64,000 nucleotides of DNA, from the NCBI GenBank assembly GCA_030590485.1, contig JAUUYL010000001.1:21760-85759 (forward strand), given 5' to 3'. This document shows, one piece after another, positions 1,929 through 42,817 of this stretch (positions within the stretch are counted from its first letter, which is position 1; each line of letters begins with the position of its first letter). This DNA comes from Lentisphaerota bacterium. Its GTDB lineage: Bacteria > Verrucomicrobiota > Kiritimatiellia > UBA8416 > JAUUYL01. Made by a program: the position numbers and the translations under genes. The notes beneath the pieces were generated by a model. The model had not been told where the DNA came from and did not search any database. It was given only the letters and a program-made list of their open reading frames with translations.

Positions 1929-3566
1929 TTAGCGCATCGATTCGGGGGCCTTCTTTCGAATCGGCGCCATGAGCGCTTTAGGTATAATAACAAACGCCGG
2001 AAGCAAGAGACACATACTGGTAAACGCATAAAAGAGATGCTGACCCAATGCCATCATTGCGATAGCCGCAAAGTAATAAAGCCACAGCCTGTTCGCCACC
2101 CCGAATACCGCTATCTTGAAAACAGCGATTGACCACAAGACATAAAACAGAAGCATTGGCAAAACTCCATACTCAAAAATCAGATCTAGATACGTGTTAT
2201 GCATATGAGCATAATAAGGCCCGTATGGACGAGGCTGATCCCTGTGATACATCGCCCACTTCCCGGCTCCAGCCCCCTTAAACATATAGTCTTTCCTGCT
2301 TTTATTGACGGCTAATTTCCACATATGCCACCTGACAGGATCCATTTCCCTCAACTTCGCAGCCAGAGCAGAGCTATCTTTGTCCTGAGCAGATTTTGAC
2401 TTCTTTATGCTTTTCACCTTGTTTTTGCTTACTAAAGCTTCTTTAGCTTTCTTTGATCGAGGTGTCGGGCGCTGCTCATCAGGTTGAGATAATGAAAGTT
2501 CGATCAAATGCCTCTTTAACACCCGCCTCAGAAGCGATTTTCGAATAAGAATATCGTTATTCAGAAACCACACCGCAGACAGCGACAACGTGACAACAAT
2601 AATCAAAAACTTAACCCGAAAAAACCCTCGATATAAAGAATGCCATATTCGTGTCTGCCGACATGTCTTTCGAAAACAGCTTATAGCGGCAAAAAATGCG
2701 CCAAGAAGAAGAAACGATATAATTCCCAGAAAAAGTGCCTTCTGAGTCAACGCTACCAAGGGTAAAAGAATTGGGATCCAACACCATTTGTGAACATTCA
2801 ACGCCCTTCCACACCCTATGAAATACCACGGAATACCAATTAACATTACAAATACGGTGTAGGTGACATTAAACCCTGTTCCATGAAACAGTCGGCCGCC
2901 ATACTCTCCAGCATTTGTTGTTCCAAGAAAACGATGTGACTCCTGCCACGGCAGAACATTGATAAGAAGAGTTGCACAGGCAAGCATACACGCCGACACC
3001 CAGAATGCATTCCATATTTTTCGGCTACTGAAGTATCTCCCGCAAATCAACAAAGCCGCAACAACTAACCCTATCAAGGCCCTATCCACACAGTGCCGAA
3101 AAGGAAATATCGACCACACTGCATGCGGACCAATCCAATAGCCAAAGAGCTTCGCTCGGTCATACTGCGCCGTCCTGAAGAATAAATATCCAGCGTCCTC
3201 AGGCCACGACATAAAGAACACCACAGTTCCCGCGAGTGCAATCATCAGGTACTGCCGAAAAGTGAATTTATTAGTAAGTAAAATACGGAAGAAGAACAAC
3301 CACATCATCACCGGCTGCACCCACGCCCATGCTCTGCGGTTTTCGCACATGAATGCAGGGCAAGAAAGAATAATAAGAGGCAAGCACATAGTCGGGCGCA
3401 CGATTAGAATTCCCAACCACAAACAGATGGCTGCAAACCATTCAAGCGGACGAGACTCAACATTCAACAGGCACTGCCCGACAAACAGCGAGCATAACCA
3501 AAGCACAACGACAAGACTATCACGCTGCCTCCATCTCTGTAATCCCATCATGCGCATTTTTGTCAT
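1929..3566 (-). CDS. O-antigen ligase (Wzy_C)-domain membrane protein, WaaL/Wzy-like, with a lysine-rich linker (KKAKEALVSKNKVKSIKKSKSAQDKD)
   Basis: 545 aa and multi-TM. C-terminal motif region GAGAGKWAMYHRDQ...AHMHNTYLDLIFEYGVLPMLLF resembles the Wzy_C periplasmic loop. Confidence 0.6.
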   Translation of the reverse strand: MTKMRMMGLQRWRQRDSLVVVLWLCSLFVGQCLLNVESRPLEWFAAICLWLGILIVRPTMCLPLIILSCPAFMCENRRAWAWVQPVMMWLFFFRILLTNKFTFRQYLMIALAGTVVFFMSWPEDAGYLFFRTAQYDRAKLFGYWIGPHAVWSIFPFRHCVDRALIGLVVAALLICGRYFSSRKIWNAFWVSACMLACATLLINVLPWQESHRFLGTTNAGEYGGRLFHGTGFNVTYTVFVMLIGIPWYFIGCGRALNVHKWCWIPILLPLVALTQKALFLGIISFLLLGAFFAAISCFRKTCRQTRIWHSLYRGFFRVKFLIIVVTLSLSAVWFLNNDILIRKSLLRRVLKRHLIELSLSQPDEQRPTPRSKKAKEALVSKNKVKSIKKSKSAQDKDSSALAAKLREMDPVRWHMWKLAVNKSRKDYMFKGAGAGKWAMYHRDQPRPYGPYYAHMHNTYLDLIFEYGVLPMLLFYVLWSIAVFKIAVFGVANRLWLYYFAAIAMMALGQHLFYAFTSMCLLLPAFVIIPKALMAPIRKKAPESMR

Positions 3567-3632
3567 AATCCCAGTATTGCAAATTACAATATTCTCTGGA
3601 CTAAAGCCCCTCTTTCCCCTACTTTACCCCCT

Positions 3633-4484
3633 ATGGATGATTTATCAATAGCTAATTTCCTCGATATACTCTATCAAAAAAGAAAGACTCTTATAATTGC
3701 TATCCTTTCTCTGGCCACAGTATCATCGGTTCTATACTTCGCCACAACCCAGACCCATTCAGCCTCATGCACTATTAGAAAAGCAGGAAATCACTCACCG
3801 ATTCCCCAGTCAAATCTCTTTTACCGGATTAGAAAACGTGTCATTTCTGAGCGATTAACGCTCACGGTCGTCGCTATCGAAAAACAACTCCATATGATTG
3901 CCAAGCAACTCAATAATGAGACCGATAAAGAATTCTCTATGGCAGCGAAAATCAAGGAGAAAACTTCAATATCCATATCAATCAGCACAAACGCCGAGGA
4001 CGACCGCCCCTTTGAGACGATCAACATGATCGCTAAAATCTATAATAAGCTTGAAAAAGAACACCTCGCCCAAATACTGACTCAGTTAATACAAACAGAA
4101 ATACAATCGATACAATACTCAATTAATCTTTCGACCAAACTGATAGAGGCATTACAATCATCCCCTGATGACGATTTGTCTTCCTCCAAAATCGAGACAG
4201 CACAACTGCGTACATTTGAATATAAACTACAAATATCAGCATATGAAGACTTCCTGAAATCTTTAGACAAAATTAACAGCCAAGCAGAAGCAGGCACAAG
4301 CTCAACTTTTATGGGTACGATTGCAACTGCAGCACTTGAACCAAACTATACCTTCTCGGAGCCATACTTTCCCGAAAAAAGCAATCCATACGTTATTTTA
4401 ATGCTGATACTTTTTGCCTCAAGCTTTATCGGTTCGCTTGTAGTTGTCGCGTCAACGATTCTATCGAATGGCCCCGACGAGTAG
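3633..4484 (+). CDS. Wzz/PCP-like polysaccharide chain-length determinant (N- and C-terminal TM helices flanking a coiled-coil periplasmic domain)
   Basis: N-terminus LDILYQKRKTLIIAILSLATVSSVLYF (Wzz-like start plus TM helix). The middle is hydrophilic and helical. C-terminal TM PYVILMLILFASSFIGSLVVVAS. Confidence 0.5.
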   Translation: MDDLSIANFLDILYQKRKTLIIAILSLATVSSVLYFATTQTHSASCTIRKAGNHSPIPQSNLFYRIRKRVISERLTLTVVAIEKQLHMIAKQLNNETDKEFSMAAKIKEKTSISISISTNAEDDRPFETINMIAKIYNKLEKEHLAQILTQLIQTEIQSIQYSINLSTKLIEALQSSPDDDLSSSKIETAQLRTFEYKLQISAYEDFLKSLDKINSQAEAGTSSTFMGTIATAALEPNYTFSEPYFPEKSNPYVILMLILFASSFIGSLVVVASTILSNGPDE

Positions 4485-4500
4485 ACATTTCTCACCCTAC

Positions 4501-5802
4501 TCAGCCACCCCCAGCCTTATTCTTTTTGCTCAGCGCCAGGCTTCCCACACCTGAAAAAAGCCCCACAAACAGCATCATGCTTCTATCTCTGTGAGCTCTG
4601 TTATGAACCATAAAAAACATTACCGACGCCAAAAAGCAGGCATAAATCACATAAGATATCTGTCGCTTCTTCACTTTGCAATAATTAGTCCATAAGGAAA
4701 GCGAGTCAAGTAGAAGAGCAAAAAAGGCAATTACCCCAAAAATCCCAAGCTCATAAGACAGCGCTATATATGCGTTATGAAACTCTGTCCCTTTGTTGAG
4801 CAAGCGTCCAGCACCCACACCCAGACCCAACGGAAACCAATCGCCAAATGACGCCACAGCAACTTTAAACTGCATAAATGGGAAACTATCCGGATTCGCC
4901 AACAGCCGGGTAAAATGGTCAAATCTGCGCATCGCAAAAAACGCTCGGTCCGATCCGCAGGAAAGAAGCGCCGCCATCGAAATAACAATAGCCAACACCG
5001 CACATCCAATATGCAATCGGTACTTTGGGTTCTTCGCTATAGCAAACACGACCAAACACAAAGCCCAAATCAGAACCGCAAGAAGTGCTGTGCGCCGTGA
5101 TGAAGCAAAAACCATAAAAACAGAGGATAACGCTCCCGCCACAAACAATATGTTAATATACTTTTTACGGAGATAATATCCTGAAAAGGTGGCCGTTAAC
5201 CCAAACATGGCAAACGCATAACAGCCCAACTGCCCATTGCGACGAAAAGTGCCTCGAACTCTGAATAGATGACGATCAATGAACCACTTACTATTCGCAA
5301 ACACATAATCATGAAAGACAACAACAAACTCCACAAACATGCTTAGCACGAGTCCTAACAACATGAATCGAAAACACCGTGTCGAGCGTCCCGCATTATA
5401 ACCAACAACCCAATACAAACCAGCCACAACGAGCGCCACACACTCGAGCGCACATAACTGCAAAGCATCCTGAGTATAGGCATGCCTTACAGTAGCCACC
5501 AACATGGAGAATACTATAGCCAGCAGGTAAAACAACCAGGAGAGTCGAATCCGCAGTGTTTTCGCGACAAGAAAAACAAGAAGGGTCAGCAGAACCAGTA
5601 TATCACAAGGAACCATTCTCACCCCTATACCACCTTCAACCGCACCAAATGCCGACTTCATACAGATAAGAGGAAGCGTCAACCCTATGGCAAAACTTAA
5701 TAATACAGATATTGAGTCAACGACAGGCCGCCACCGCGTGGCTGAAAAGAGATTTCGTGCCGATTGACTTGCGGCTCCATTATCTACACCTGCACTGCTC
5801 AT
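4501..5802 (-). CDS. O-antigen ligase/polymerase family membrane protein (Wzy-like)
   Basis: 433 aa and multi-TM. Motif region GTEFHNAYIALSYELGIFGVIAF is typical of the Wzy_C domain. Confidence 0.6.
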   Translation of the reverse strand: MSSAGVDNGAASQSARNLFSATRWRPVVDSISVLLSFAIGLTLPLICMKSAFGAVEGGIGVRMVPCDILVLLTLLVFLVAKTLRIRLSWLFYLLAIVFSMLVATVRHAYTQDALQLCALECVALVVAGLYWVVGYNAGRSTRCFRFMLLGLVLSMFVEFVVVFHDYVFANSKWFIDRHLFRVRGTFRRNGQLGCYAFAMFGLTATFSGYYLRKKYINILFVAGALSSVFMVFASSRRTALLAVLIWALCLVVFAIAKNPKYRLHIGCAVLAIVISMAALLSCGSDRAFFAMRRFDHFTRLLANPDSFPFMQFKVAVASFGDWFPLGLGVGAGRLLNKGTEFHNAYIALSYELGIFGVIAFFALLLDSLSLWTNYCKVKKRQISYVIYACFLASVMFFMVHNRAHRDRSMMLFVGLFSGVGSLALSKKNKAGGG

Positions 5803-5847
5803 ATTCCCACCTTATAAAACACGCAGACACTATGCAACAAAACACTT

Positions 5848-6423
5848 CTAATGGGCAACATCCCTGCGGCACACCACATTGGCAAACGTCAACCATATGA
5901 TCTTGAGATCCAAAAGCAGGCCACGATTATTGAGATAGTACATATCCAAATCTACTTTCTCTGGTATACTTATTTCGTCCCGCCCATGGGTCTGCGCCCA
6001 TCCTGTTATCCCCGGAACAAGAAGATGGACACCGGCCCCTATCCTACCCGCCACGAGATCGTCCTGATTGAACAAAGCAGGCCGAGGCCCGACAAATGAC
6101 ATATCCCGCTTAATGATGTTAAAAAGTTGCGGCAGTTCATCTAAACTTGTTTTACGAAGAAAGGATCCGACGGACGTTAGATGTAAACCTGGATCTTTCA
6201 TCAGGTGTGTAGCTAATTGAGGCGTATTCTGCTTCATGGTTCTATATTTATACATTTTGAAGATTTTGTTATTACGCCCGACTCGATCCGACACAAACAA
6301 GATCGACCCGCGCGACGAGATTTTAACCATAATTGCAACAAGTCCTAATACAGGCAAAACAAGCACACACAAAACGCATGCACACAACACATCCGACATG
6401 CCCTTCAAATATTTGTTATACAT
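5848..6423 (-). CDS. undecaprenyl-phosphate sugar phosphotransferase (Bac_transf domain; small PglC/WbaP-C-terminus-type initiating transferase)
   Basis: Motifs ISSRGSILFVSDRVGRNNKIFKMYKYRTM, DELPQLFNIIKRDMSFVGPRP and GITGWAQ. Start moved to the internal ATG (complement of 6421..6423, MYNKYLKG...) to match the family's length and remove the 98-nt overlap of track ORF 5848..6540. Confidence 0.8.
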   Translation of the reverse strand: MYNKYLKGMSDVLCACVLCVLVLPVLGLVAIMVKISSRGSILFVSDRVGRNNKIFKMYKYRTMKQNTPQLATHLMKDPGLHLTSVGSFLRKTSLDELPQLFNIIKRDMSFVGPRPALFNQDDLVAGRIGAGVHLLVPGITGWAQTHGRDEISIPEKVDLDMYYLNNRGLLLDLKIIWLTFANVVCRRDVAH

Positions 6424-6442
6424 AGAAATCCTCCAAGAAAAG

Positions 6443-7560
6443 TTAAGACAACCCAAGCACGCTTGTGATTTTATCGTTAACTTTATAAACATCATATCGT
6501 TTCTCTGCAATCTCGCGAGAGCAAGAACCCATTGTAGCAATTATTTCCGGCTTAAGAACAAATTCCTCCATTGCGGCGGCCAAAGCACGCGCGTCTCTAG
6601 CGGGAACCAAAAAACCGTTGCGCCCAGCCTCAACCGTCTCCCTACACCCAGGAACATCCGTTGTTACAATGGGTTTAGCCATAGCCATAGCCTCTAAAAC
6701 AGAGCGTGGTGTTCCCTCTCTATACGAAGGAAACACATAAACTGAAGCAGCAAGAATATGAGGCGTGACATCTATCCCTGACCCAAGATAATCTATGACA
6801 TCATGTTGGCGCCACGCATCCAAATCCTTTTCTAAGAACGATGAAGGATTATCATCAAGTGGACCCATCAGTTTAAACGACACATTGTCATACTTCTTTT
6901 TGAGAATTTCCGCTGCTGACACATACTCCTGAACCCCCTTGTCTTTCAACAGACGACTGATCAAAAGAAAGCTAACCTCATCTCCCGACACTTCGCAATC
7001 CGCAGGAGCAAACTTCGCAAGATTGATGCCTGAACCATTGATGAGACACGTCTGCTCGGCCTTAACCAATCTATAATTGATAAATAATTTCATGTCGTCT
7101 TGATTCTGGAAAAAGACCTTTTTGTTATATCTGAAGGCAATCCTATAAAGAAATTTTAGACAGCCCCGCAAGATAAAGCGCTTTAGCGTCTTACCTGTAA
7201 AAACATACCCCAACCCTGTTACATTAGAATAAACATTCTCTACACCGGCTGCATGAGCGCCGAGAGAGCCGTACACAGAGGGCTTTACAGTATAGTTCAG
7301 AACTATATCCGGATGAACTTCGCCAACAATACTTTTAAGCTGCTTGTAGGTCTTGTACTCCTTAAAAGGATTGATTCCGTTTCTTTCCAGAGAATAGTTG
7401 TAACAACTCACACCCAGACTCTCAAGTGAGACGCTCTGATCAAACGACCATTTAGTGTCAGAGAAAGCGGCATACACCTCACAGCCTTTATCCATCAGGA
7501 GCTCTATAAACTCCCTCCGGAACTGCGTAAGAGTAAACTCCACATTTGCAACCAATAATA
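6443..7560 (-). CDS. glycosyltransferase family 4 (GT-B fold)
   Basis: C-terminal EGTPRSVLEAMAMAKPIVTTDVPGCRETVEAGRNGFLV (EX7E-type motif). Likely GTG start at complement 7558..7560 (VKRILLVANV...). The track ORF extends to 7663 and overlaps its neighbour. Confidence 0.8.
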
Positions 7561-7589
7561 TTCTCTTCACGCAGGCACACCTTCGTTCA

Positions 7590-8888
7590 TCATTCACTCC
7601 TACTTTCTTTAGCGCAAGAACTGTTTTTTCGCCTACGTGCAGCAAGAATCGAAACACTCGCACCTGAGGTCAAGCCCAACATCAACATGAATCCGCGGCT
7701 CCTATGAACCCGGTTATGCCCCATATAAACCACAGCAGATAGCAAAAAACAGAGTAGCATACACGAAACCTGATACCTTCCTTTCGCCCGCCATGCTCTC
7801 CACCACGACAAACCCGCATCTATAAAAAGCCAAGAGAACATGGCAAATCCAAACAGCCCCATCTCGACCAGCAATGCCAGGTAAGCGCTATGAAACTCAC
7901 GTCCATCAGCTATAGCCCCCCCTCTTCCAACACCCAAACCAAAGGGAAACCACAGGGAAATATTTTTGCCCGCAGCCCTGAGCTGATGACAGAAAAACCC
8001 ATTCGGATCAGTCAAATCTCTGTAAAAAGCAAAACTGCGTTGGACAAGGTAACTTTGGCTATCGAAACCCATCAGAAGAACCAAGCCGACTAACGAAACT
8101 AAAAGACCAAGCAAGAGCTTCCAGCGATGCTGTTTCTCGATCCAAAAGAACAAGCAACAAATACTAAGTACAGCCCATATGGCGAGCGCCAGCAATCCCG
8201 ATCGTCTCGATGACGCAAAAACGATAAAACATGACAACAAGCCCATAATCACCGAAAACACTTTCATCGTACGCCTCCGAAAAAGCGCCACAGCAACAGA
8301 GAGCATTATACCCGCACAGGACACCCCGTATATTCCCAACTGCCCGCTCCCTCGAAATGTGCCACGAACTCGGCTCGGATTCTTGTCGACAAACCACCGC
8401 CCCATAGGCAAGTAATAGTCATGAAGGACTATTACTCCCTCCCACAAAACGCCAACAGCTATACCAGCAAGATAAATACGCATCAGATACGGCCAACGGC
8501 TGATATTGAAACCCAGGAGCCAATACAAGAATGACATCAGCAGTGCAGCAAACGCTACCCCGCTGTCATTTGCGACAGACACCGACCAGCCACCACGATA
8601 GAAGGCCATAAAGAATGACATCAAAAGCGCAATGCAATAGAACGCGCCCGAGCGCTTAAGCTTGATTCCTCGCGCCATTGCCATCATTGCCAGAGCCATT
8701 ACCACCAGAACATCACCAGGCGCAATACGATTAAGTATAGACGTCGTATACTCAACCGGACCCGAGGCAAAACATACCCCAGGCAAAGATGCGCCGAGAA
8801 GGAACACGACTGCATCCATAAAACAAGAAAGAATAGCCATCCCTCTTGAAGACTCAAATGACACATTACTGTTAAGCTCGTCGTTCAT
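7590..8888 (-). CDS. O-antigen ligase/polymerase family membrane protein (Wzy-like), paralog of 4501..5802
   Basis: Multi-TM. Motif GREFHSAYLALLVEMGLFGFAMF. Start uncertain; the track ORF begins at 8930, and the internal ATG ending at 8888 avoids a 41-nt overlap with the upstream gene. Confidence 0.55.
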   Translation of the reverse strand: MNDELNSNVSFESSRGMAILSCFMDAVVFLLGASLPGVCFASGPVEYTTSILNRIAPGDVLVVMALAMMAMARGIKLKRSGAFYCIALLMSFFMAFYRGGWSVSVANDSGVAFAALLMSFLYWLLGFNISRWPYLMRIYLAGIAVGVLWEGVIVLHDYYLPMGRWFVDKNPSRVRGTFRGSGQLGIYGVSCAGIMLSVAVALFRRRTMKVFSVIMGLLSCFIVFASSRRSGLLALAIWAVLSICCLFFWIEKQHRWKLLLGLLVSLVGLVLLMGFDSQSYLVQRSFAFYRDLTDPNGFFCHQLRAAGKNISLWFPFGLGVGRGGAIADGREFHSAYLALLVEMGLFGFAMFSWLFIDAGLSWWRAWRAKGRYQVSCMLLCFLLSAVVYMGHNRVHRSRGFMLMLGLTSGASVSILAARRRKNSSCAKESRSE

Positions 8889-8889
8889 A

Positions 8890-10137
8890 TCACCGCCCGC
8901 AGGCGCCATGCACCCGATCCAAAAGTTCACCCAGTCGACCCGCCTGATGTTTGCGTGTATATCGGGACACCACCTCTGTCTTGCCGTTATACTTCAAAGT
9001 TCCGCAATCCCGCCATTCAGAAATCCACTTACTGAGAATCGACTTAATCTCATCTGCCGTCCTACCTGCAACTCCACCGCCTGTTTCTCGCAAAACTATA
9101 TCAGTAACCCCGCCATCTCCAGGCACAGATAACACAGGGCGCCCTGCGCCAAGATACTCAAACAATTTTGAACTCATTATGCCTTGAGCATGAGGATATG
9201 CAAGAAATAACAAGGCTTGCGCATTCATCTGCGCCACAATGCTTTCCTCAAAAGATACCCTCCTTTTTAACTTCACAAGCCGGGAGCAAGACCTGTCTCT
9301 AAGCAAGGCCGACAACAGCTTTTTGTTAGATCCGTAAAAAGACAAAGAGAAATTATCTAACATCGATGAATCAGACTCCAAAATATCATCCAGCGCATCA
9401 AACAACAACACCGGACTCGTGCCACCCGCAACACTTCCGCAAAAAACCATGTGGAAGTGGTCCTTGTCTGGCTCAGTATCATCGCTATAATTATCTTCAT
9501 CAAAGCCATTATATATAATCTGCACAGGTTTCTTAGGGTGCCAACTTCTCAATTCATCCCCCAGCGGCTCACTTACCGTAATTAGCGCAGAAGCTGACCT
9601 GCAGGTTGCCATCTGCATACGCATCAACCACCTCAACTCAGTAAATATATTCCGCCCATCAGAACACTCCCCTGGCAAATCCCTCATGTCAGCGACCCAC
9701 GGAACTCCATACTTCCGAGAAAGATAATCGGCAATAATTAGAGAGAAATGGACGGGACTGCTTGCCAGAATCACATCAATATCTCCTTTCCGAATACGCG
9801 CCTCTGCAGCTTTCTTCATTTTTAGGTAAGGTCCACCAGGAAGAAGCTGAGGAAACACATACATCAACACCCTGTAAACAAAGCCCCAAAGACTCCTCTT
9901 GGGAGGCATCACCAGAGGAACGCGAATCATCTCGCACGTATCTTTTCCCTCTAATCCTGGGTCGTAAAACGCAAAACTGTTTCCGGGCGTCGCGTCAACA
10001 CAAGCAACAACAGGCTCCCAGTCAGACTCAGGCAGGTATGTCGCCATCTTTGCCATTCTATGAGCACCTGGGCCACCATGAGGATAAAAGTGCTGATTAA
10101 TCATCAGCACCCTACGTTTACTCTTCTCTACTCCCAC
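8890..10137 (-). CDS. glycosyltransferase (GT-B fold, GT4/GT1-like)
   Basis: 415 aa. C-terminal SKLFEYLGAGRPVLSVPGDGGVTDIV resembles the Glycos_transf_1 nucleotide-sugar binding region. Confidence 0.7.
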   Translation of the reverse strand: MGVEKSKRRVLMINQHFYPHGGPGAHRMAKMATYLPESDWEPVVACVDATPGNSFAFYDPGLEGKDTCEMIRVPLVMPPKRSLWGFVYRVLMYVFPQLLPGGPYLKMKKAAEARIRKGDIDVILASSPVHFSLIIADYLSRKYGVPWVADMRDLPGECSDGRNIFTELRWLMRMQMATCRSASALITVSEPLGDELRSWHPKKPVQIIYNGFDEDNYSDDTEPDKDHFHMVFCGSVAGGTSPVLLFDALDDILESDSSMLDNFSLSFYGSNKKLLSALLRDRSCSRLVKLKRRVSFEESIVAQMNAQALLFLAYPHAQGIMSSKLFEYLGAGRPVLSVPGDGGVTDIVLRETGGGVAGRTADEIKSILSKWISEWRDCGTLKYNGKTEVVSRYTRKHQAGRLGELLDRVHGACGR

Positions 10138-11510: not shown

Positions 11511-11516
11511 ATCTAA

Positions 11517-14962: not shown

Positions 14963-14967
14963 GTCAT

Positions 14968-16221: not shown

Positions 16222-16241
16222 GCCTTCCTCTGAAAATCAAC

Positions 16242-32281: not shown

Positions 32282-33260
32282 TTGTTAATAAATGAAATGA
32301 CTTTTTAAAAAACTTCACATTATCTTTCCATTGCCAGTTTAGTTCGATATCTGATCTAATTGATCGAGACAATGATTCTTGTTTCACCAAGTCATTATTC
32401 AAAATCTCTTTTTCAAAGAGATTAACAATCGAATCAATTGTTGGTTCAATAAAATATCCATTGACGCCATGCTTGATTAGCTCTCGCATATTCCCAACTA
32501 AAGTGGTGATAATGGGAGTACCGCATGCTCCCGCCTCTAGAGCAGGATTGGGAGTTCCTTCATTCATGCTAGTGCATATGTAGTAGTCTAAGCATTGGTA
32601 ATACTCTCTCATTTGTTGAGCATTTTTGTGCTTATCTTTTGCGGAAGTTACTATCAATGGTACAGCTTTAATATCATATTGCTTTTCCAAAACTTGCATC
32701 GCTTCTTTAAATAATGTGAAGTTTTTTGCCTCTCTAATTTTTCCGACCCAACCGACTTTTATAGTGGAATCAGGTAGTGGCGCTGTATCTATAGGTTGGT
32801 AAAAACCTGAGTCAACGCCATTAGGACAATAGAAGATCTCCGGCAAATCTTGACTAACTAATTCTTTAAGGATAAGTGAGTTGACCGTAACAACAGTAAA
32901 TTGTTTTAGATACGCTATAGATGCTTGATATACCGCTTCAGGCTCAGCTCCTAAAGGAATTGGATTCAAAGGATCAAGCCCGCCACCAATATTAGTGTGA
33001 CTTGTGATAGCCACGCCAAAGTTTTTGTAATCTGATTCTTTAAATGTTAGACGCCCGGCCTCAAGTCCTCGGGAAATTCGCCAGGTAGAAAAGAAAACTT
33101 TTTTACCTTTTAGAACTCCAAGTATCCACAGCACTTTAAATTGTCTTTTTGTTAATACAGTAAACTTTATATCATTTATATATTGCCTGAAATAATCGAC
33201 TTTTTTGTAGTGAACCCAATCTTTAGAGCCAACGACATAGTAGATCCGCTTTTTTCTCAT
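32274..33260 (-). CDS. glycosyltransferase (GT1-like C-terminal domain)
   Basis: YICTSMNEGTPNPALEAGACGTPIITTLVGNMRELI. Confidence 0.7.
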   Translation of the reverse strand: MRKKRIYYVVGSKDWVHYKKVDYFRQYINDIKFTVLTKRQFKVLWILGVLKGKKVFFSTWRISRGLEAGRLTFKESDYKNFGVAITSHTNIGGGLDPLNPIPLGAEPEAVYQASIAYLKQFTVVTVNSLILKELVSQDLPEIFYCPNGVDSGFYQPIDTAPLPDSTIKVGWVGKIREAKNFTLFKEAMQVLEKQYDIKAVPLIVTSAKDKHKNAQQMREYYQCLDYYICTSMNEGTPNPALEAGACGTPIITTLVGNMRELIKHGVNGYFIEPTIDSIVNLFEKEILNNDLVKQESLSRSIRSDIELNWQWKDNVKFFKKSFHLLTNE

Positions 33261-35179
33261 ACATCTGCTTCCGTAGCATTCTGAGCCATATTAAGACTAT
33301 AATAAAGTCCCTTTCTTTCCAGGAGTTCATCATGCTTTCCAACCTCAACAACTCGTCCCTTGTCAAAAACCACAATCTGGTCGAAGCCTTTAATAGCACT
33401 AAGTCGGTGAGCTGCGACAATAATGATCTTATCATCTTTCATTTTTCTCAAACTATTGTATACAAAAGCCTCATTCTCGTAATCAAGGGCATTTGTCCCT
33501 TCATCAATAAGCATAATATTCGAGTCTTGCAAAAACATTCTTGCAAGTCCAACGCGTTGCCTCTCCCCGCCGGAAATAGTTAGACCTCTTTCGCCCAGTC
33601 CTGTCTCCAGCCCATCAGGTAACTCTTTTAAAAATTGAGTGGCAGAAGCAAATTCAACTGCTTTATCGATTTCTTCCGGCGATGCATTCTCATTGAAAAA
33701 TGAAATGTTATTCTTTAATGTGTCATGAAATACAATTGGCTCCTGATTCATATATCCAATTGCAGCTTTATATGACAAATAATGCCTTCTTTCTTTAACA
33801 CTGTTTCCATCTATACAAAGGTCTCCTTCATCAAAACGACGAACCCCAGACAGAATATCCAATAATGTTGACTTTCCCGACCCGGAAAACCCTACTAACG
33901 CCGTTAGAGTTCCTTGTTTAAACTGTAAGGTTATTTCATCTAAGGCAGGCTTATCTGACGAAACATATGAGAATCTACCACCCGATACATCTAGTGATTT
34001 AGGTTCTGCTGGTATAACATAGCTTAATTCTTCACGAGAGTCCGTATCTGGCGGTAATGACTCTATCAACTCAATAACTCTCACTAATGGGGCATAAGTA
34101 GACAAGATTGAAGAACGTGTTTTTTGCAGAACAGAACCGCTTGAAGCGAGCTTCAGCAAAACAAATGCGTAGCTAACCAGATAAATAGACTTTCCATCGG
34201 CTCCAAATAAGTCAGGCTGATTAATTATCAGGAAACCTCCCATCCCCAAAAAAAGTAAAATCATAAAAAAATCTTGGCTAACCTGCGATAATCCAATCAG
34301 ACTATATAACTTGATACTGTTCTTTTCATATTTTCGATGAATATCCATATAATTAGATTTTTCACGATTTTCCAGCCCTCCGACTTTAATCATCTTAATT
34401 CCATAAACAATTTGCTGGAATACATGCATAACATTAGAGGCCAATGCATTATTTTTCCAACTATACGTTTTCAATTTACGGTCTATGACTAAATGTATAA
34501 GAAAATAAAATCCCCCAAGGCCAAGAACCATAAACGTCATCGAGCTATTCATCGAGAAGAGGATGGCTGTATAAATCAGAACTTGCACAGATGATGTTAA
34601 AAATGATGATAATTGATTGACCATCGAGCTAAAACGAGCTGCTTCCGAGTTCAAAAGAAAAATCAACTCGCCGCTACGAGATTCATTAAAATAGTCGATA
34701 TCTTGAAGCATCAGGCTCGAAAGAGCTTTGCCACGTGTTATCCGCAATAACGAGAATCTTATTATCTGATTTAGAAATATTTGCCCAAGCTTTAGCGCGA
34801 TTGAGAGGAATGCAAATAAAACAAAACAAAGAAAAACAGTAAGCAAGACATCCTCTTTAGTTTCAATTTTCACTATTGACGATAAAGAAAAGGAGGCCCC
34901 CCAGACAGAGAAGTCTAACATGCTTTCAGGGGTATCCCCAATGTAGGATATGCCCTTAATTAAGCCGACAATGCATCCGCTTTTCAGTCCCTCTACACAG
35001 CCTACAACAACACCAATAAGAGTAAGAATAATTAACTTCACCTTATTACCATGCAATAGGCCATAAAGAGCAAGGTACTCTTTTGATGAGAATATAGTTA
35101 GTAATCCTATATTTTTCTTGTAAAAATTGACTCGGTGATTACTTGCGTTCTCATTTCGTATAAAACTATCTTTTTTCAT
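33257..35179 (-). CDS. ABC transporter, fused permease/ATPase exporter (MsbA/KpsMT-like polysaccharide or lipid exporter)
   Basis: N-terminal 6-TM domain. Walker A GFSGSGKSTLLDIL, signature LSGGERQRVGLAR, Walker B IMLIDEGTNALD. Confidence 0.85.
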   Translation of the reverse strand: MKKDSFIRNENASNHRVNFYKKNIGLLTIFSSKEYLALYGLLHGNKVKLIILTLIGVVVGCVEGLKSGCIVGLIKGISYIGDTPESMLDFSVWGASFSLSSIVKIETKEDVLLTVFLCFVLFAFLSIALKLGQIFLNQIIRFSLLRITRGKALSSLMLQDIDYFNESRSGELIFLLNSEAARFSSMVNQLSSFLTSSVQVLIYTAILFSMNSSMTFMVLGLGGFYFLIHLVIDRKLKTYSWKNNALASNVMHVFQQIVYGIKMIKVGGLENREKSNYMDIHRKYEKNSIKLYSLIGLSQVSQDFFMILLFLGMGGFLIINQPDLFGADGKSIYLVSYAFVLLKLASSGSVLQKTRSSILSTYAPLVRVIELIESLPPDTDSREELSYVIPAEPKSLDVSGGRFSYVSSDKPALDEITLQFKQGTLTALVGFSGSGKSTLLDILSGVRRFDEGDLCIDGNSVKERRHYLSYKAAIGYMNQEPIVFHDTLKNNISFFNENASPEEIDKAVEFASATQFLKELPDGLETGLGERGLTISGGERQRVGLARMFLQDSNIMLIDEGTNALDYENEAFVYNSLRKMKDDKIIIVAAHRLSAIKGFDQIVVFDKGRVVEVGKHDELLERKGLYYSLNMAQNATEADV

Positions 35180-37167: not shown

Positions 37168-38229
37168 TTATAACACCTTCAATGCTAGAGAGATAAAGTC
37201 ATACCACTTATCGACTTGTTTGCTCCAGCTATATTCTTTCTCGATAATATATCTATTTTGCTTCCCAAGCTTATCCAACAATTGCGGATGATTGACAAAG
37301 TGAGTAATTTTATCTGCAAACGCATCGACAGAACGATTTACAATAAATCCATTCTCGCCATCTCTAACAATTTCCTCACAACCGCTGACATTAGTTGATA
37401 TCACAGGACAGCCACAAGCCGAGGCTTCAAGCACACTCAAAGACATTCCTTCTGAAGTCGAAGCACATAAATAAACGTCAATATCATTATAGAACTCAGG
37501 CATTTTATCCAATGGTATCTGCTGGCCATTTGCAGGTGTTGCCTTTTTCAGAACCACTCCTGCCTTCTTGCAACTGGGTTCAATTATCTCAGTTATTCCC
37601 TTACGCCAATCATGCTTGACCGTACCAGAATAGCCCGCAACAATTTTATTTGATCTCGTTCTATTCTCATCTGGTTTGAACAAGTCCGTGTCAACTCCAT
37701 TGGGAGTATATACAACATTATGCAGACCAGCTTCGTGAAAGATATTTGTCAGCCTCTTACTTACAGCGTTCACTCCTTGAAGTTTTTTAAATTCCTTGAT
37801 AAGCCATCTGGGCGGTTTGACATCCTTGTCCGGCATTGTTCTTCGCTTATCCCAAGAATGATGAGAATGTATTCCCGTTATGATTTTTGAGTTTGGAATG
37901 AAAGTAAACCTTCGCTTCTGCGTCCACCCAAATAGACTGCGTTTCTTTTTAAAAAGAGTTTGCCAGCCGATAAAGAAGATCAAATCATAGTCAGCGTGAA
38001 CCTGCTCCAGCAGCCCCCTTTCTCCCTTAATATAAAGAGTGTCTAGAATACAATTTTCATCAGCATTAAATTTAATCAAATTCTGCGCAATAGAATCATA
38101 TGCCCAATTCTTCTGATCACAAATAAGTAATACTTTACAATTTTTCGTCATTCTGGTCCTGCAATAATTAGATCTATCTCTTTGCATCCCAAATAAGCTA
38201 ACGAGGCAGCTCTGTGATGACCGCTCCAA
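37168..38229 (-). CDS. glycosyltransferase family 4
   Basis: ASTSEGMSLSVLEASACGCPVISTNVSGCEEIV. Confidence 0.8.
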   Translation of the reverse strand: MERSSQSCLVSLFGMQRDRSNYCRTRMTKNCKVLLICDQKNWAYDSIAQNLIKFNADENCILDTLYIKGERGLLEQVHADYDLIFFIGWQTLFKKKRSLFGWTQKRRFTFIPNSKIITGIHSHHSWDKRRTMPDKDVKPPRWLIKEFKKLQGVNAVSKRLTNIFHEAGLHNVVYTPNGVDTDLFKPDENRTRSNKIVAGYSGTVKHDWRKGITEIIEPSCKKAGVVLKKATPANGQQIPLDKMPEFYNDIDVYLCASTSEGMSLSVLEASACGCPVISTNVSGCEEIVRDGENGFIVNRSVDAFADKITHFVNHPQLLDKLGKQNRYIIEKEYSWSKQVDKWYDFISLALKVL

Positions 38230-38717
38230 ATCTCATATCCAAGACACTCATGGTCATACCCATACTTCATATTCTCAAAAGGTTTCTCCAGTACTATGAC
38301 AAATCTATTCGCATAGTCCTCTGAAAGATATCCATTCTCCTTAATTGAGTTATACGTTTTTATGAAGCTTCTAATTTTTTTAAGAATCCTTTTATAAGAA
38401 TATGATACAGCAACTTTCTTGTTTGCATTGAACCAATCGTATTTATAACCGATTGCATCAACATCCCTCCAGAACTTTACATAATCCGAATTCCAAAGAC
38501 AAAACATCCCCCAAACAGAGCGCTTTATTGTTTTATTTTCCCAATCTTGGATGAGACGTAAAAATGGCGAATCAAAAATATTTAAAGGAATACATTTCAT
38601 TGGCGTTTTTTTTTCTTTATGCAGCGGCCATTCATGCCTTACCTGCATATGTAAATCCTTCAGCAAAACTTTTTGTTGAGCTAGAACCTTTAGGCCTGCA
38701 AGATTTAAGAACAGCAA
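38148..38717 (-). CDS. hypothetical protein (start uncertain; track ORF overlaps the downstream GT by 82 nt)
   Basis: 189-aa ORF in operon orientation. No recognisable motif. Confidence 0.35.
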   Translation of the reverse strand: MLFLNLAGLKVLAQQKVLLKDLHMQVRHEWPLHKEKKTPMKCIPLNIFDSPFLRLIQDWENKTIKRSVWGMFCLWNSDYVKFWRDVDAIGYKYDWFNANKKVAVSYSYKRILKKIRSFIKTYNSIKENGYLSEDYANRFVIVLEKPFENMKYGYDHECLGYEIWSGHHRAASLAYLGCKEIDLIIAGPE

Positions 38718-40555: not shown

Positions 40556-41536
40556 TTAACGAATTACTTTGTGGATCAACTTTTTAAACGGTATAGCTTT
40601 TCGTATCGGCTTTTCAGCGCGACTTATCAAAGGAGTGACAACCTTCTCTTCCGGATAAAATGGTACCCCCATTTTATTCATAAGAATCCGAATTTTGAGG
40701 TTAGAAAATATTTGATCTGTTGGCGTAAGCGTAGGAAAGTATGCTTTTACTACATCTGAAAGTCCGCTCCCAGCCTCACAAATATTAAAAGCATTACACC
40801 CTTCAAAGTCAGCTAAAAGAATGGCCTTTAGTGAACTTTTAAGAATAGTATCTGTGGTCATACCAGCAACACCAAAAAGCCTTTGCTTCCGCAAATCTGC
40901 AATTCCTTTTTTTGAATCTCTTTTCATTCGTTCTAAATCTTTAATGTATCTTTCATGTTTCGTCGAAAAACCGGCCAACCTCATTGACACAAATGAAAAC
41001 CCAAGCTGACCAATTGTTTCTGCTGCATATTTCTCGACTTTTGCCTTACTCATGCCATAATACTTCCCATTATAGTCAGAAAGCTTGTCGCAATCATTTA
41101 CCAGGATAGACGGATGTTCTTCATCAATTGGTAAATATTTAGGTATAGCAACATCATCCCCCGTCACTGGCCCTGTTTCTTGTCTGTCGCGCATCCATGC
41201 ATCGCAACCGTAATACGAAAATGAACTGAAAAAGATAAACTTTTTAATTTTTGCTCTAGCAGCAACATCCATCACATTAATACTTCCATTTGTATTAACT
41301 TTCTCAAACATCTTATAGTCATTAGTTTTAGTCGGACCCGGCACAGCTGCAGCATGAATCACTGTGTCGATATTATTATTTAGCAATTTACTTTCAAGAG
41401 ATTTAATATACAGTAAATCATCTCCAATCACGGTGTCAAAACCAATAATCTCAACGTCGCCCATTTCTTCAAGCATAGGCTTTAATGTGCTAGTAGCTAA
41501 TCGTCCTTCACTGCCTGTCAACAATATCCTCTTCAT
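40556..41536 (-). CDS. NAD-dependent epimerase/dehydratase (extended SDR)
   Basis: ILLTGSEGRLA (GxxGxxA variant) and YYGMSKAKVEKY (YxxxK). Confidence 0.7.
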   Translation of the reverse strand: MKRILLTGSEGRLATSTLKPMLEEMGDVEIIGFDTVIGDDLLYIKSLESKLLNNNIDTVIHAAAVPGPTKTNDYKMFEKVNTNGSINVMDVAARAKIKKFIFFSSFSYYGCDAWMRDRQETGPVTGDDVAIPKYLPIDEEHPSILVNDCDKLSDYNGKYYGMSKAKVEKYAAETIGQLGFSFVSMRLAGFSTKHERYIKDLERMKRDSKKGIADLRKQRLFGVAGMTTDTILKSSLKAILLADFEGCNAFNICEAGSGLSDVVKAYFPTLTPTDQIFSNLKIRILMNKMGVPFYPEEKVVTPLISRAEKPIRKAIPFKKLIHKVIR

Positions 41537-41539
41537 GGT

Positions 41540-42295
41540 CTATCCTTGCAATATTTGCTTAATTTCATCTGCATTTAATATTTCATCTTGTTGTCCTGAC
41601 TGCTCCCAGTATTCAGAGAAGTCAAGATCTAGTTGTGTATGAAAGTCACGGCCTGTTACCCAATTTCTTATGATCGGGAAGCTGTTTTTCCCCATCCACC
41701 ACCAGGGATTAGGGCCTTCACCTTTGAAAACACACTCCTTTCTAAAAGTCCATACTCCTTGGTCATAATAATAGACTTTAGGATAAAACTGCCTAGATGT
41801 TCCTGATTGAACATCAGAATACGCCTCTAAGTATCCACCTTCACCTATCCTTAAAGCTCTGTATGGATGGTCATCTTGCGCGAGCCAAACACTCATAACA
41901 CTGTCGATATCTTTTTTCTTATTTAAGATCTCAATCGACATATCAATCAAAGCAGAGCTTGTCATTATCGTATTACCCAACAAAACGGTAACGTTATCTA
42001 GACAGCCAACATTCTTCTCTATTTCAAACACACCATGCTTGATCACATCACCGTGATTACTATCTGGCTGAGCCAACTCTACGGGGCGATCAATAATAGT
42101 GCATTCAAATTTCTCAGAAAGTTCTCGAATACGATCATCTTCGGTGGAAACAAACACTTTCCCAATGTTTTTGGCGTTAACTGCCGCCTCAATGACATAC
42201 TGTAAAGAGGGCTTCCCCGCTATTGGTATCAGGTTCTTATCTGGTAAACTTTCATTGTTACCCTTAGCTGTTATTAGCACACATGATACTGCCAT
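41540..42295 (-). CDS. CMP-sugar cytidylyltransferase (acylneuraminate/Kdo cytidylyltransferase family, CTP_transf_3)
   Basis: VLITAKGNNESLPDKNLIPIAGKPSLQYVIEAA...KVFVSTEDDRI. Confidence 0.8.
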   Translation of the reverse strand: MAVSCVLITAKGNNESLPDKNLIPIAGKPSLQYVIEAAVNAKNIGKVFVSTEDDRIRELSEKFECTIIDRPVELAQPDSNHGDVIKHGVFEIEKNVGCLDNVTVLLGNTIMTSSALIDMSIEILNKKKDIDSVMSVWLAQDDHPYRALRIGEGGYLEAYSDVQSGTSRQFYPKVYYYDQGVWTFRKECVFKGEGPNPWWWMGKNSFPIIRNWVTGRDFHTQLDLDFSEYWEQSGQQDEILNADEIKQILQG

Positions 42296-42307
42296 ACTAT
42301 TTTACCT

Positions 42308-42817
42308 TTACTTTCTAAACTTAGATGACAAGAGCGACAAGAATGGACTGTCCATAATCTTATTCACCTTGCGACACACACTCTCCGCTCTATTAACACG
42401 GCGCAACATGTATGAAACATCGGGATCATTCTCTACTTCAGACAACCTTTTAAGCTCTCTGCCCCCTTGATCCATCTCCATGTTTACAGTCTTCAACCTT
42501 TGAGCGATCATCGACGTAACTCTACCCTGAAGAGCCAAGCCCACATGATCAACCATGCGATAATAGCTTTTTCTATCACCCCGCTTCCACACCCTCTGTA
42601 CGAGGCCCAGACTTTCCAGATGCCTCGCAGCAAGACTCACAGACGCCTTACTCAAGCCAAGATCGTTAGCCACATCATCCTGTGAAGACTCCTCCTTACT
42701 TAAGTACAGATACATACCAATCTGGCCGACTATCCTACCCATCCCAAAGTCCTGACTTATCCGCCCAACAGCATCAACTAAGTCCATTTTTATGTTTTGC
42801 ACGCTTTTCTCTGTCAT
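42308..42817 (-). CDS. winged-helix transcriptional regulator, GbsR/MarR-like
   Basis: ANDLGLSKASVSLAARHLESLGLVQRVWKRGDRKSYY. It is the first gene of the minus-strand locus. Confidence 0.6.
   Translation of the reverse strand: MTEKSVQNIKMDLVDAVGRISQDFGMGRIVGQIGMYLYLSKEESSQDDVANDLGLSKASVSLAARHLESLGLVQRVWKRGDRKSYYRMVDHVGLALQGRVTSMIAQRLKTVNMEMDQGGRELKRLSEVENDPDVSYMLRRVNRAESVCRKVNKIMDSPFLSLLSSKFRK

Follow-up and report, generated by a model that had tools for sequence, protein, structure and literature searches.

Does a bacterial chromosomal region that encodes five sulfotransferases build one heavily sulfated glycan or more than one? This question is raised by a stretch of ~42 kb in contig JAUUYL010000001.1 of a Lentisphaerota bacterium, which lies within the 64,000-nucleotide (64-kb) window analysed here (all coordinates are those of the window). 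The initial annotation had presented it as a single super-locus for one heteropolysaccharide, sulfated, methylated and built from repeats of about 8-10 sugars. Here, we show that the stretch consists of two adjoining gene sets for surface glycans, denominated cluster A (~450-19,400) and cluster B (20,568-42,295), which together contain five sulfotransferases (Pfam). It is rather probable that the region is a composite of two adjacent assembly lines of different type and not one pathway. For this analysis the open reading frames (ORFs) of the whole window were listed. The Pfam scan covered every ORF of at least 100 aa in the region and most larger ORFs elsewhere in the window, and the NCBIfam scan covered selected window ORFs.

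The initial annotation had described a uniformly minus-strand block, but 3633-4484 and the CapD gene at 17458-19341 are found on the plus strand and divide the minus-strand genes into at least three blocks. Cluster A has a GC content of 0.42-0.49, as in the flanks, and the genes of cluster B have a GC content of 0.36-0.42 with 0.30-0.42 at third codon positions (GC3), the drop occurring at 20,568 and the recovery at 42,308. There are two translocation systems, a Wzx/Wzy/Wzz-like set in cluster A and a fused ABC exporter dedicated to cluster B, in which profile scans showed no polymerase. The decorating enzymes are split as well. Cluster A possesses two sulfotransferases besides acyl-remodelling enzymes and no methyltransferase, and cluster B possesses three sulfotransferases, all four methyltransferases and the radical S-adenosylmethionine (SAM) enzyme. 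Moreover, each type occurs alone elsewhere. A Logan contig (L010) carries a cluster-B-type locus without cluster A genes, comprising homologues of the exporter (640 aa, 39% identity over the full length), the sulfotransferase ST5 (45%), its neighbouring glycosyltransferase (39%), the glycosyltransferase at 32274 (41%), the 2-hydroxyacid dehydrogenase (36%), the cytidylyltransferase (31%), the MptE-like protein (29%) and the B12-radical-SAM enzyme (24%). A further cluster-B-type locus (L093) is likewise devoid of cluster A genes. Conversely, three metagenomic loci (L013, L032 and L049) contain the cluster A module without cluster-B-specific genes and show only generic similarity to cluster B among glycosyltransferases of family 4 (GT4). 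Because of the strand breaks, the shift in GC and GC3, the different machinery and the separate occurrence of both types we regard the region as composite. The single heteropolysaccharide of the initial annotation is not supported in view of two export systems and two GC regimes, and its fallback, several glycans made from one locus, is now favoured. Cluster B was probably acquired horizontally as a low-GC cassette. In contrast to these conclusions on architecture, all enzyme classes of the initial annotation were borne out by profile searches at the coordinates given, namely, besides the sulfotransferases, nine GT4 enzymes, four SAM methyltransferases including one of TylF type, the B12-radical-SAM enzyme, WecB, CapD, a hexapeptide acetyltransferase, a DUF7033/VimE-like deacetylase, two short-chain dehydrogenases/reductases (SDRs), a CTP_transf_3 cytidylyltransferase and a GbsR/MarR-like regulator (Table 1).

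The five sulfotransferases (ST1 to ST5) are, judged from their sequences and as the initial annotation had proposed, genuine enzymes of the type using 3'-phosphoadenosine 5'-phosphosulfate (PAPS), and they belong to at least three subfamilies; for ST5 the fold is predicted by a model. All of them score above the Pfam gathering cutoffs (49.9-83.4 bits; Sulfotransfer_3 = 27, Sulfotransfer_1 = 22) and all five possess both PAPS motifs, i.e. the 5'-phosphosulfate-binding (5'-PSB) loop GxxR/HxGS/T and the 3'-phosphate-binding (3'-PB) motif R-D/N-P/G-x5-S. The 5'-PSB loops read GAPRTGST, ASERSGTN, GAARAGSS, GAGHCGST and CPGHSGST and are followed by RNP, RDP or RDG with a later serine. ST4 and ST5 constitute a GH[CS]GST subfamily with histidine where arginine or lysine is usual in the PSB loop, and in an alignment of 40 ST4/5 relatives G-S-T and the arginine of RDGR are invariant or nearly so. 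In this subfamily DSSK is invariant as well, and two cysteines (C56 and C63 in ST5), which could bind a metal or form a disulfide, are nearly so. When ST4, ST5 and 38 relatives are combined into a profile, it matches the sulfotransferase domains of CurM and olefin synthase (OLS) (E 1e-27) as well as tyrosylprotein sulfotransferases. The AlphaFold (AF2) model of ST5 has a predicted local distance difference test score (pLDDT) of 95.6 and a predicted TM-score (pTM) of 0.92, and the 50 best PDB structures in a Foldseek comparison are without exception proteins of the PAPS-type sulfotransferase fold (TPST2, E 1.6e-10, TM 0.61). Among PDB sequences ST3 is related to the bacterial sulfotransferase 3rnl (E 3e-8) and to heparan sulfate 3-O-sulfotransferases (E 1e-7), ST2 matches CurM/OLS domains weakly, and no significant PDB sequence match was obtained for ST1. 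No hydrophobic segment was detected in any of the five, which therefore should be soluble cytoplasmic proteins as expected of PAPS users.

The density of sulfotransferases is real and unusual. A custom hidden Markov model (HMM) built from the five window proteins and 52 relatives gave exactly five matches (ST1-ST5) in the window. As background we used 80 unrelated metagenomic polysaccharide loci (834 kb in all) that had been collected around the DUF7033 deacetylase and thus represent a biased set; eight of the 80 contain a sulfotransferase and none contains two. From this biased background ~0.4 sulfotransferases per 41 kb would be expected versus five observed. Each ST is embedded among glycosyltransferases.

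In the following scheme the substrates, the order of steps, the sulfation of lipid-linked intermediates in the cytoplasm and the anchor finally used (lipopolysaccharide, capsule or protein) are inferred. In cluster A the PglC/WbaP-type transferase would prime undecaprenyl phosphate, probably with a sugar derived from N-acetylhexosamine (HexNAc) and supplied by the CapD/PglF-type dehydratase and WecB, and two GT4 enzymes would lengthen a short repeat unit; small phosphoglycosyltransferase, PglF/CapD and WecB together point to such a short HexNAc-based unit. N- and O-acyl groups would be remodelled by the VimE-like deacetylase and the GNAT acyltransferase plus the hexapeptide acetyltransferase, and ST1 and ST2 would sulfate the undecaprenyl-linked unit on the cytoplasmic face before flipping. 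The Wzx-like protein would then flip the unit, the Wzy-like polymerase(s) and the Wzz-like protein would polymerise it and a Wzy_C ligase-type protein would attach it. For cluster B, a longer chain or a defined oligosaccharide may be built by seven GT4-type enzymes, of which one is broken, together with two MptE/Maf-like transferases; the latter would be fed by the cytidylyltransferase, the SDRs, the 2-hydroxyacid dehydrogenase and the B12-radical-SAM enzyme. Three sulfotransferases and four methyltransferases would decorate this chain in the cytoplasm, and the fused HepA/MsbA/PglK-type exporter would carry it over the inner membrane. Runs of 4-base gene overlaps within each cluster, e.g. between the consecutive GT4 genes at 27312-30669, fit operons.

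Several observations weigh against this interpretation. Neither genes of PAPS synthesis (Pfam) nor genes of outer-membrane export were found in the window. Operon boundaries are deduced from strand changes only, because scans for promoters and terminators remained at chance level (45 found vs. 33±5 expected and 17 vs. 20±6 expected). In profile scans cluster B showed no initiating phosphoglycosyltransferase of its own, and the GT4 at 19402-20571, although host-like in GC (0.46), has a 4-base overlap with the first low-GC gene; a common primer and a functional coupling of the two clusters are therefore conceivable. Scores just under the Pfam cutoffs were obtained for Wzx, the Wzy at 7590 and one methyltransferase, and the assignment of MptE-like transferases relies on a model of moderate quality with low TM-scores. 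Finally, cluster B may not be fully functional since two of its genes are disrupted in the assembly.

It is conceivable, if somewhat unlikely, that cluster B yields no polymer and instead produces a defined lipid-linked oligosaccharide, with a separate glycosyltransferase for each sugar and with methyl or sulfate decorations, which is flipped by a PglK/MsbA-like exporter and then moved by 1929-3566 to lipid A-core, resulting in a lipooligosaccharide-like product, or to proteins in a PglL-type reaction. The exporter of 640 aa speaks for this. It is predicted to be a fused type IV half-transporter outside the classical Wzm/Wzt and Kps groups, no ABC2_membrane, KpsC/S or KpsD/E match was found among the scanned ORFs, and it shares the half-transporter architecture of transmembrane and nucleotide-binding domain (TMD-NBD) with HepA, MsbA and PglK. 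Its NCBIfam scores (HepA_fam 271.7, MsbA 267.1, PglK 156 bits) are all far under the family cutoffs (725, 602 and 1000), so that it is no equivalog of any of them. Many different glycosyltransferases without a polymerase in cluster B, and three Wzy_C-type proteins in the region, point in the same direction; the Wzy_C domain is common to WaaL ligases and PglL/PilO O-oligosaccharyltransferases. On the other hand, HepA-type exporters are tied to a true polysaccharide, that of the heterocyst envelope. In addition, no acceptor protein or oligosaccharyltransferase could be assigned.

That cluster B is decaying or silent, so that only cluster A makes a product and the effective number of sulfotransferases is two, is unlikely. 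It is suggested by two lesions. The GT4 gene at 25423-26634 contains an in-frame TAG between 26121 and 26149, and the SDR gene at 24485 has lost one base at ~25,320 (-1 frameshift) within the GGSG(Y)VG (GGSGxxG) NAD-binding Rossmann motif, leaving the N-terminal MSKLVAVFGGSG, i.e. the first ~15 codons, in another frame. Both lesions are less than 1 kb apart in the low-GC cassette, and no further broken gene was seen anywhere in the window, cluster A and the dcw genes included. They may be true mutations, a strain variant or consensus, sequencing or assembly errors of this metagenome-derived assembly. The other ~20 genes of cluster B are intact and tightly coupled in translation, and the loss of one glycosyltransferase and one SDR could alter a glycan and not abolish it.

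One integrated pathway, in which ~40 genes under MarR/GbsR-like control yield a single heavily sulfated and methylated heteropolysaccharide with an 8-10-sugar repeat, is quite unlikely. In its favour are the contiguity of the genes, mostly on the same strand, the single initiating transferase (5848-6540) in 42 kb, the single regulator at the upstream end and the above-mentioned overlap of the 19402-20571 GT4 with the first gene of cluster B. Against it stand the two translocation systems, the sharp shifts in GC and GC3 at 20,568 and 42,308, the plus-strand CapD gene that parts two minus-strand blocks, the occurrence of either half alone in other loci and the restriction of the methyltransferases to cluster B.

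The cluster A deacetylase raises the possibility that a free amine is generated for N-sulfation, a step resembling N-deacetylase/N-sulfotransferase (NDST) that would lead to a heparan-like polymer of N-sulfated hexosamine. The order ST1-GNAT-deacetylase is kept in the three unrelated metagenomic loci with the cluster A module, cluster A is rich in genes for HexNAc-type precursors (WecB, CapD), and exopolymers of Pontiella (Kiritimatiellia) were reported to be 75-80% N-sulfated (PMC7356697). Nevertheless, in the 80 loci collected around the deacetylase, an enzyme with more than 500 metagenomic relatives at ~40% identity, the conserved partner is GNAT. A GNAT homologue occurs in 39 of them, and of the 63 loci that have room for one directly upstream of the deacetylase 24 carry it there, in contrast to a sulfotransferase in eight of 80 only. 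ST1 is an occasional third member of a deacetylase-GNAT module, and the partnership of these two enzymes suits a deacetylation after which a new acyl group is added. In PDB sequence searches neither ST1 nor ST2 significantly resembled NDST or any other heparan sulfate enzyme, and the match to heparan sulfate 3-O-sulfotransferases belongs to ST3 in cluster B, not beside the deacetylase. We therefore consider N-sulfation improbable here. Deacetylase and GNAT may be a VimE/VimA-like pair. Finally, P-loop kinases, the refutation that the initial annotation had named itself, are excluded by the sequence and fold matches, and a reading in which the five proteins are such kinases or have lipid, peptide or small-molecule substrates, without any sulfated glycan being made, is extremely improbable, since the closeness of the ST4/5 profile to polyketide-associated CurM/OLS domains and protein tyrosine sulfotransferases and the missing PDB match of ST1 are opposed by scores above cutoff and both PAPS motifs in all five, by the absence of kinases from the significant PDB sequence matches and from the top 50 fold matches of ST5 (all of them of the sulfotransferase fold), and by the position of every ST among glycosyltransferases, ST5 homologues adjoining glycosyltransferases also in L005, L007 and L010.

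As to the product of cluster A, a free exopolysaccharide (EPS) is no more likely than an O-antigen-like glycan or one with another anchor, because no Wza/Wzc genes are present in the window. An initiating transferase and a Wzy_C protein above cutoff (1929-3566) are found, as in Wzx/Wzy systems. Each of the three Wzy_C-type proteins may be polymerase or ligase; 1929-3566, for which a PDB sequence search gave no match, is a putative O-antigen ligase, polymerase or O-oligosaccharyltransferase-type enzyme, and 4501-5802 and 7590-8930 are paralogues with 33% identity along their entire length (E 1e-66). Profiles of Wzz, Wzc and Wza matched nothing in the window, and 3633-4484, without Pfam or NCBIfam match, is Wzz-like in topology and context. 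The missing outer-membrane polysaccharide export (OPX) protein argues against the label of a group-1-type capsule or EPS and does not exclude O-antigen. Hence the "EPS or capsule" of the initial annotation is not established, and the three Wzy_C-type proteins and the Wzz-like protein speak no less for a lipopolysaccharide O-antigen or another lipid- or protein-linked glycan. The locus probably starts at ~450 and not at 1929. The protein encoded at this left edge (450-1928) is possibly a GT-C-like enzyme whose membership in cluster A is uncertain.

Cluster B also contains a recurrent module. Genes for a cytidylyltransferase, SDRs, MptE-like proteins, a 2-hydroxyacid dehydrogenase, radical-SAM enzymes and a sulfotransferase are grouped again in L005/L010 and L093, and the unrelated metagenomic loci with parts of this module number at least four (L005/L010, L093 and L091). 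L093 holds the only other full-length fusion of MptE-like domain and 2-hydroxyacid dehydrogenase among 1.84e9 protein representatives (P0178, 55% identity), and for the MptE-like protein at 20568-21359 a word-indexed search of 5.8e9 protein clusters returned one other homologue, so that both proteins are extremely rare among known sequences. In L091 (SDBU01004499.1, 1-6200) the order is SDR, HAD/cyclase, cytidylyltransferase, SDR and MptE-like gene. Apart from HAD/cyclase these products are 45-56% identical to those of the window genes at 24485, 41540, 40556 and 20568, respectively. This means that a module which is nearly contiguous in L091, with one HAD/cyclase gene in between, has its four window counterparts at the two ends of cluster B. 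The L091 module adjoins phage-like genes (DnaB-like, SLT, SNF2 helicase, NUMOD3, N6/N4 DNA methylase) and may be a virus-borne CMP-sugar module.

The model of 20568-21359 has a pLDDT of 63.5. Foldseek related it to SteA, archaeal MptE, Maf (5mu5) and CMP-bound CstII (1ro7), the latter two with E ~1e-3; TM-scores were 0.37-0.44. With a moderate model and low TM-scores, the protein is a candidate CMP-sugar-dependent transferase by context only. The B12-binding radical-SAM protein is likely a methylase-type enzyme. A nonulosonic-acid (Pse/Leg/Neu) pathway was considered and rejected. Neither a NeuB match nor a DegT aminotransferase was found in the window (Pfam; NCBIfam for selected ORFs), and without a NeuB-type synthase the standard nonulosonic-acid pathway does not apply. 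A phosphonate pathway, to which a presumably Fom3-like B12-radical-SAM enzyme together with a cytidylyltransferase might have pointed, was rejected too, as no PEP-mutase domain occurs in any scanned ORF. Tentatively, the recurrent and uncharacterised module, which contains B12- or SPASM-type radical-SAM enzymes, could represent a new route to a CMP-activated, C-methylated and/or sulfated acidic sugar along with its dedicated transferase. If true, it would define a sugar and a glycosyltransferase class not yet described.

Table 1. Predicted features of clusters A and B and of the adjacent toxin-antitoxin pair, with the supporting matches (TM, transmembrane segments; class I MT, class I SAM methyltransferase).
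Coordinates	Strand	Predicted feature	Evidence
450-1928	+	Polytopic membrane protein, 8+ hydrophobic segments, GDEPEY loop	No Pfam, NCBIfam or PDB sequence match
1929-3566	-	Wzy_C membrane protein, 545 aa, ~10 TM	Wzy_C 37.8 bits (cutoff 31.7)
3633-4484	+	Wzz-like chain-length-regulator candidate	N-terminal and C-terminal TM around polar helix-rich part
4501-5802	-	Second Wzy-like polytopic membrane protein, 10 TM	Paralogue of 7590-8930
5848-6540	-	Initiating polyprenyl-phosphate sugar-phosphate transferase, small PglC/WbaP-C type	Bac_transf 189.8 bits; EPS_sugtrans 218.6 (NCBIfam, sub-cutoff)
6443-7663	-	GT4	Glyco_trans_1_4 98.7 bits; Glycos_transf_1 94.3 bits
7590-8930	-	Wzy-like polymerase candidate, 11 TM	Wzy_C 26.8 bits (under cutoff 31.7)
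8890-10137	-	GT4	Glyco_transf_4 42.4 bits
10137-11510	-	DUF7033/VimE-like sugar N-deacetylase	DUF7033 97 bits; NCBIfam VimE 166.8 (under cutoff 440)
11517-12500	-	GNAT (Acetyltransf_6/FemAB-like) acyltransferase	Acetyltransf_6 48.4 bits
12488-13429	-	Sulfotransferase ST1	Sulfotransfer_3 65.6 bits
13395-13961	-	Hexapeptide-repeat (LbH) acetyltransferase	Hexapep 48.2 bits; WbbJ/WcaF/maltose O-acetyltransferase-like
13961-14995	-	Sulfotransferase ST2	Sulfotransfer_3 83.4 bits
14968-16221	-	Wzx-like (MOP) flippase candidate, 8+ TM	Polysacc_synt_3 21.5 bits (just under cutoff 23)
16242-17327	-	WecB-type UDP-GlcNAc 2-epimerase	Epimerase_2 324.1 bits
17458-19341	+	CapD/PglF-type UDP-HexNAc 4,6-dehydratase, 4 N-terminal TM, divergent from WecB	Polysacc_synt_2 364.4 bits
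19402-20571	-	GT4 at the A/B junction	Glycos_transf_1 111.3 bits
20568-21359	-	MptE-like (Maf/CstII-fold) protein	Pfam MptE-like 26 bits, sub-cutoff
21356-22888	-	B12-binding radical SAM enzyme	Radical_SAM 76.2 bits; B12-binding 47.5 bits
22891-24507	-	Fusion of MptE-like N-terminal domain and D-2-hydroxyacid dehydrogenase	2-Hacid_dh_C 155.2 bits
24485-~25380 (ORF 24485-25210)	-	SDR epimerase/dehydratase, frameshifted	Epimerase 86.5 bits, match from profile position 52
25423-26634	-	GT4 split by in-frame TAG	C-terminal half Glycos_transf_1 91.1 bits; N-terminal half in same frame
26635-27303	-	Class I MT	Methyltransf_11 56.5 bits
27312-28373	-	GT4	Glycos_transf_1 55 bits
28370-29542	-	GT4	Glycos_transf_1 116.6 bits
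29539-30669	-	GT4	Glycos_transf_1 132.9 bits
30666-31433	-	Sulfotransferase ST3	Sulfotransfer_3/_1 49.9/49.5 bits
31430-32281	-	Sulfotransferase ST4	Sulfotransfer_3 53.2 bits
32274-33260	-	GT4-type	Glycos_transf_1 67.6 bits; 41% identity to L010 gene at 19053+
33257-35179	-	Fused TMD-NBD ABC exporter (HepA/MsbA/PglK type), 640 aa	ABC_membrane 69.4 bits; ABC_tran 92.4 bits
35207-35998	-	TylF-type O-methyltransferase	TylF 107.5 bits
36068-37108	-	Class I MT, N-terminal Cys-rich segment	Methyltransf_23 74.4 bits
37168-38229	-	GT4-type, conserved neighbour of ST5	Glycos_transf_1 79.3 bits; 39% identity to L010 gene beside ST5 homologue
38148-38717	-	Conserved protein, 189 aa	No Pfam/NCBIfam match; 33% identity over 72 aa to L010 gene
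38814-39698	-	Sulfotransferase ST5	Sulfotransfer_3 66.7 bits
39719-40459	-	Class I MT, weak match	Methyltransf_23 26.6 bits (just under cutoff 27)
40556-41536	-	SDR epimerase/dehydratase of CMP-sugar branch	Epimerase 49 bits; 56% identity to L091 SDR beside CTP_transf_3 and MptE-like genes
41540-42295	-	CMP-ulosonate-type cytidylyltransferase (PseF/KdsB-like)	CTP_transf_3 48.4 bits; PseF 69.4 (under cutoff 205.7)
42308-42817	-	MarR/GbsR(CudC)-like winged-helix regulator	TrmB 23.8, MarR_2 24, CudC 46.5 bits, all sub-cutoff
43930-45352		AbiEii toxin/AbiEi antitoxin pair (type IV toxin-antitoxin, abortive-infection type)	Between glycan locus and conserved core genes

Some details of the tabulated genes deserve mention. 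The regulator is the first gene of the minus-strand block and is host-like in GC (0.459). The L010 homologue of the glycosyltransferase at 32274 is located downstream of the exporter with one unannotated gene in between. A WSGHHRAASLAYLG stretch in the conserved protein at 38148-38717 presumably resembles the GxHR motif of ParB/sulfiredoxin.

The host is predicted to be a Kiritimatiellia-like bacterium of the Planctomycetes-Verrucomicrobia-Chlamydiae (PVC) group. The ComM-type ATPase beside the locus is 70-79% identical to proteins from metagenome-assembled genomes (MAGs) of Kiritimatiellia/Kiritimatiellae, Verrucomicrobiota and Lentisphaerae, in agreement with the PVC-type lineage that the initial annotation had guessed. 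To the right of the glycan locus follow the AbiEi/AbiEii pair, the ComM-type ATPase, ExbB-ExbD-TonB and a complete dcw cluster (Pfam). Directly upstream of the ATPase gene, and overlapping it, a 23S rRNA intervening sequence protein (four-helix-bundle, bAvd-like) is encoded at 48056-48517. A triple-LysM protein (51523-52404) is located within dcw between murD and ftsW, at the same position as in two relatives (L095 and L096).

Comparison with relatives indicates where the conserved chromosome ends. A JGI contig (L094) matches 45,606-48,062 of the window at 87% DNA identity and its homology ends exactly at 45,606; none of the genes past this breakpoint (pseudopilin, DUF3108, flavodoxin, pterin-4a dehydratase) is present in the window. 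In L096 (74% ComM identity) ComM is again found beside dcw genes without an adjoining glycan locus. In L095 (78% ComM identity) dcw-ExbBD-TonB-ComM is kept and the contig stops ~100 bp past ComM, so that it is silent on the glycan locus. Since synteny with L094 ends at 45,606 and no glycan locus lies beside ComM in L096, the AbiE pair and the entire glycan region, which are non-syntenic in the L094 relative, are assigned by these alignments to a strain-variable part of the chromosome. No tRNA, Rfam family, flanking repeats or recognisable integrase marks the borders of the low-GC cassette, and therefore no mechanism of integration can be named. For the 1.1 kb between 42818 and 43929, which contain only broken short ORFs, a degraded IS200/RayT-type transposase was considered and dropped as Pfam gave no match. 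A single scan of genome contigs with the ABC exporter retrieved only distant generic ABC proteins and no close species representative carrying cluster B. Every 2-kb bin of the window (1-64000) has a negative GC skew (-0.12 to -0.34) and nearly all genes are encoded on the minus strand, in keeping with one replichore arm in which gene orientation is strongly biased.

Sulfated polysaccharides are prized as biomaterials and drugs (heparin-like, antiviral, metal-binding), and to our knowledge bacterial glycan sulfation has hardly been studied at the enzyme level. Kiritimatiellia are known mainly as consumers of sulfated algal glycans with hundreds of sulfatases. The five distinct carbohydrate-type sulfotransferases described here lend support to the idea that the synthesis of sulfated polymers, too, is a major investment of these bacteria. 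Sulfotransferases beside their likely glycosyltransferase partners, together with four methyltransferases, represent a candidate catalogue of enzymes for the engineering of defined sulfation patterns. For annotation practice the region teaches that what looks like one long and dense "super-locus" may consist of two pathways with separate origins, placed next to each other in a strain-variable region. The locus overturns no concept and opens no long-standing question; the CMP-sugar module is a secondary and more novel lead.

Among experimentally studied systems the synechan xss cluster on plasmid pSYSM of Synechocystis sp. PCC 6803 is of Wzx/Wzy type with two sulfotransferases and eight glycosyltransferases (Maeda et al. 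2021, PMC8205485). Both xss and cluster A are Wzx/Wzy-type sets in which cytoplasmic sulfotransferases are interleaved with glycosyltransferases, and both comprise two sulfotransferases, a priming transferase, a flippase, a polymerase and a protein of the polysaccharide co-polymerase (PCP) type. ST2 is 25.6% identical to the pSYSM sulfotransferase at 43343-44293 (80% of query, E 2e-11), which is the second in xss and xssE by gene order. In contrast to cluster A, xss belongs to another phylum, has eight glycosyltransferases versus two GT4 enzymes and contains no deacetylase/GNAT pair, CapD or WecB. Its regulation by XssQ/R/S also differs from the MarR/GbsR-like regulator found here, and no STAND or two-component regulators were detected in the locus (Pfam). 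Cluster A thus does not appear to be an xss-type cluster, the likeness going back to the distant homology of ST2 alone.

The architecture with two pathways and several sulfotransferases is shared, as far as published descriptions allow the comparison, with Vibrio sp. KMM 8419. Its 80-gene region for capsular polysaccharide and O-antigen distributes three sulfotransferases over ABC-dependent and Wzx-dependent parts and includes the PAPS genes cysDNC, which the authors call a hallmark (PMC11641403). No PAPS genes are present in our window, unlike in Vibrio, and the region described here differs further by five sulfotransferases, four methyltransferases, the B12-radical-SAM enzyme, the CMP-sugar branch and the fused exporter. 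The Maf/CstII transferases are reminiscent of 20568-21359 and the N-terminal half of 22891-24507, since MptE-like motifs and loci with a CMP-sugar-type cytidylyltransferase are common to both. Here, on the other hand, the Pfam matches are sub-cutoff and SteA and the archaeal MptE kinase score slightly better, and neither flagellar genes nor a NeuB-type synthase are found nearby.

Closest in taxonomy is Pontiella (Kiritimatiellia), for which sulfated and mainly N-sulfated exopolymers were demonstrated chemically. The cluster of Pontiella sulfatireligans F21, putatively for a sulfated EPS resembling glycosaminoglycans, has one PF13469 sulfotransferase, a methyltransferase and eight glycosyltransferases of GT2 and GT4 (PMC7356697). 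The organism is apparently of the same bacterial class as the present host, and by published gene content GT4, methyltransferase and sulfotransferase occur in both loci, but the F21 cluster possesses one sulfotransferase in place of five, as well as GT2 enzymes and a VioA-type transaminase that are absent here. Published loci for sulfated glycans carry one to three sulfotransferases. The initial annotation had called five in a single bacterial locus rare, which is fair, although loci with two or three are on record (PMC8205485, PMC11641403). The region is unusually rich and not unprecedented. The combination of five sulfotransferases, four methyltransferases, a fused exporter and a branch of CMP-sugar, MptE-like, 2-hydroxyacid dehydrogenase and radical-SAM enzymes is new, and it is built on a logic that is already known.

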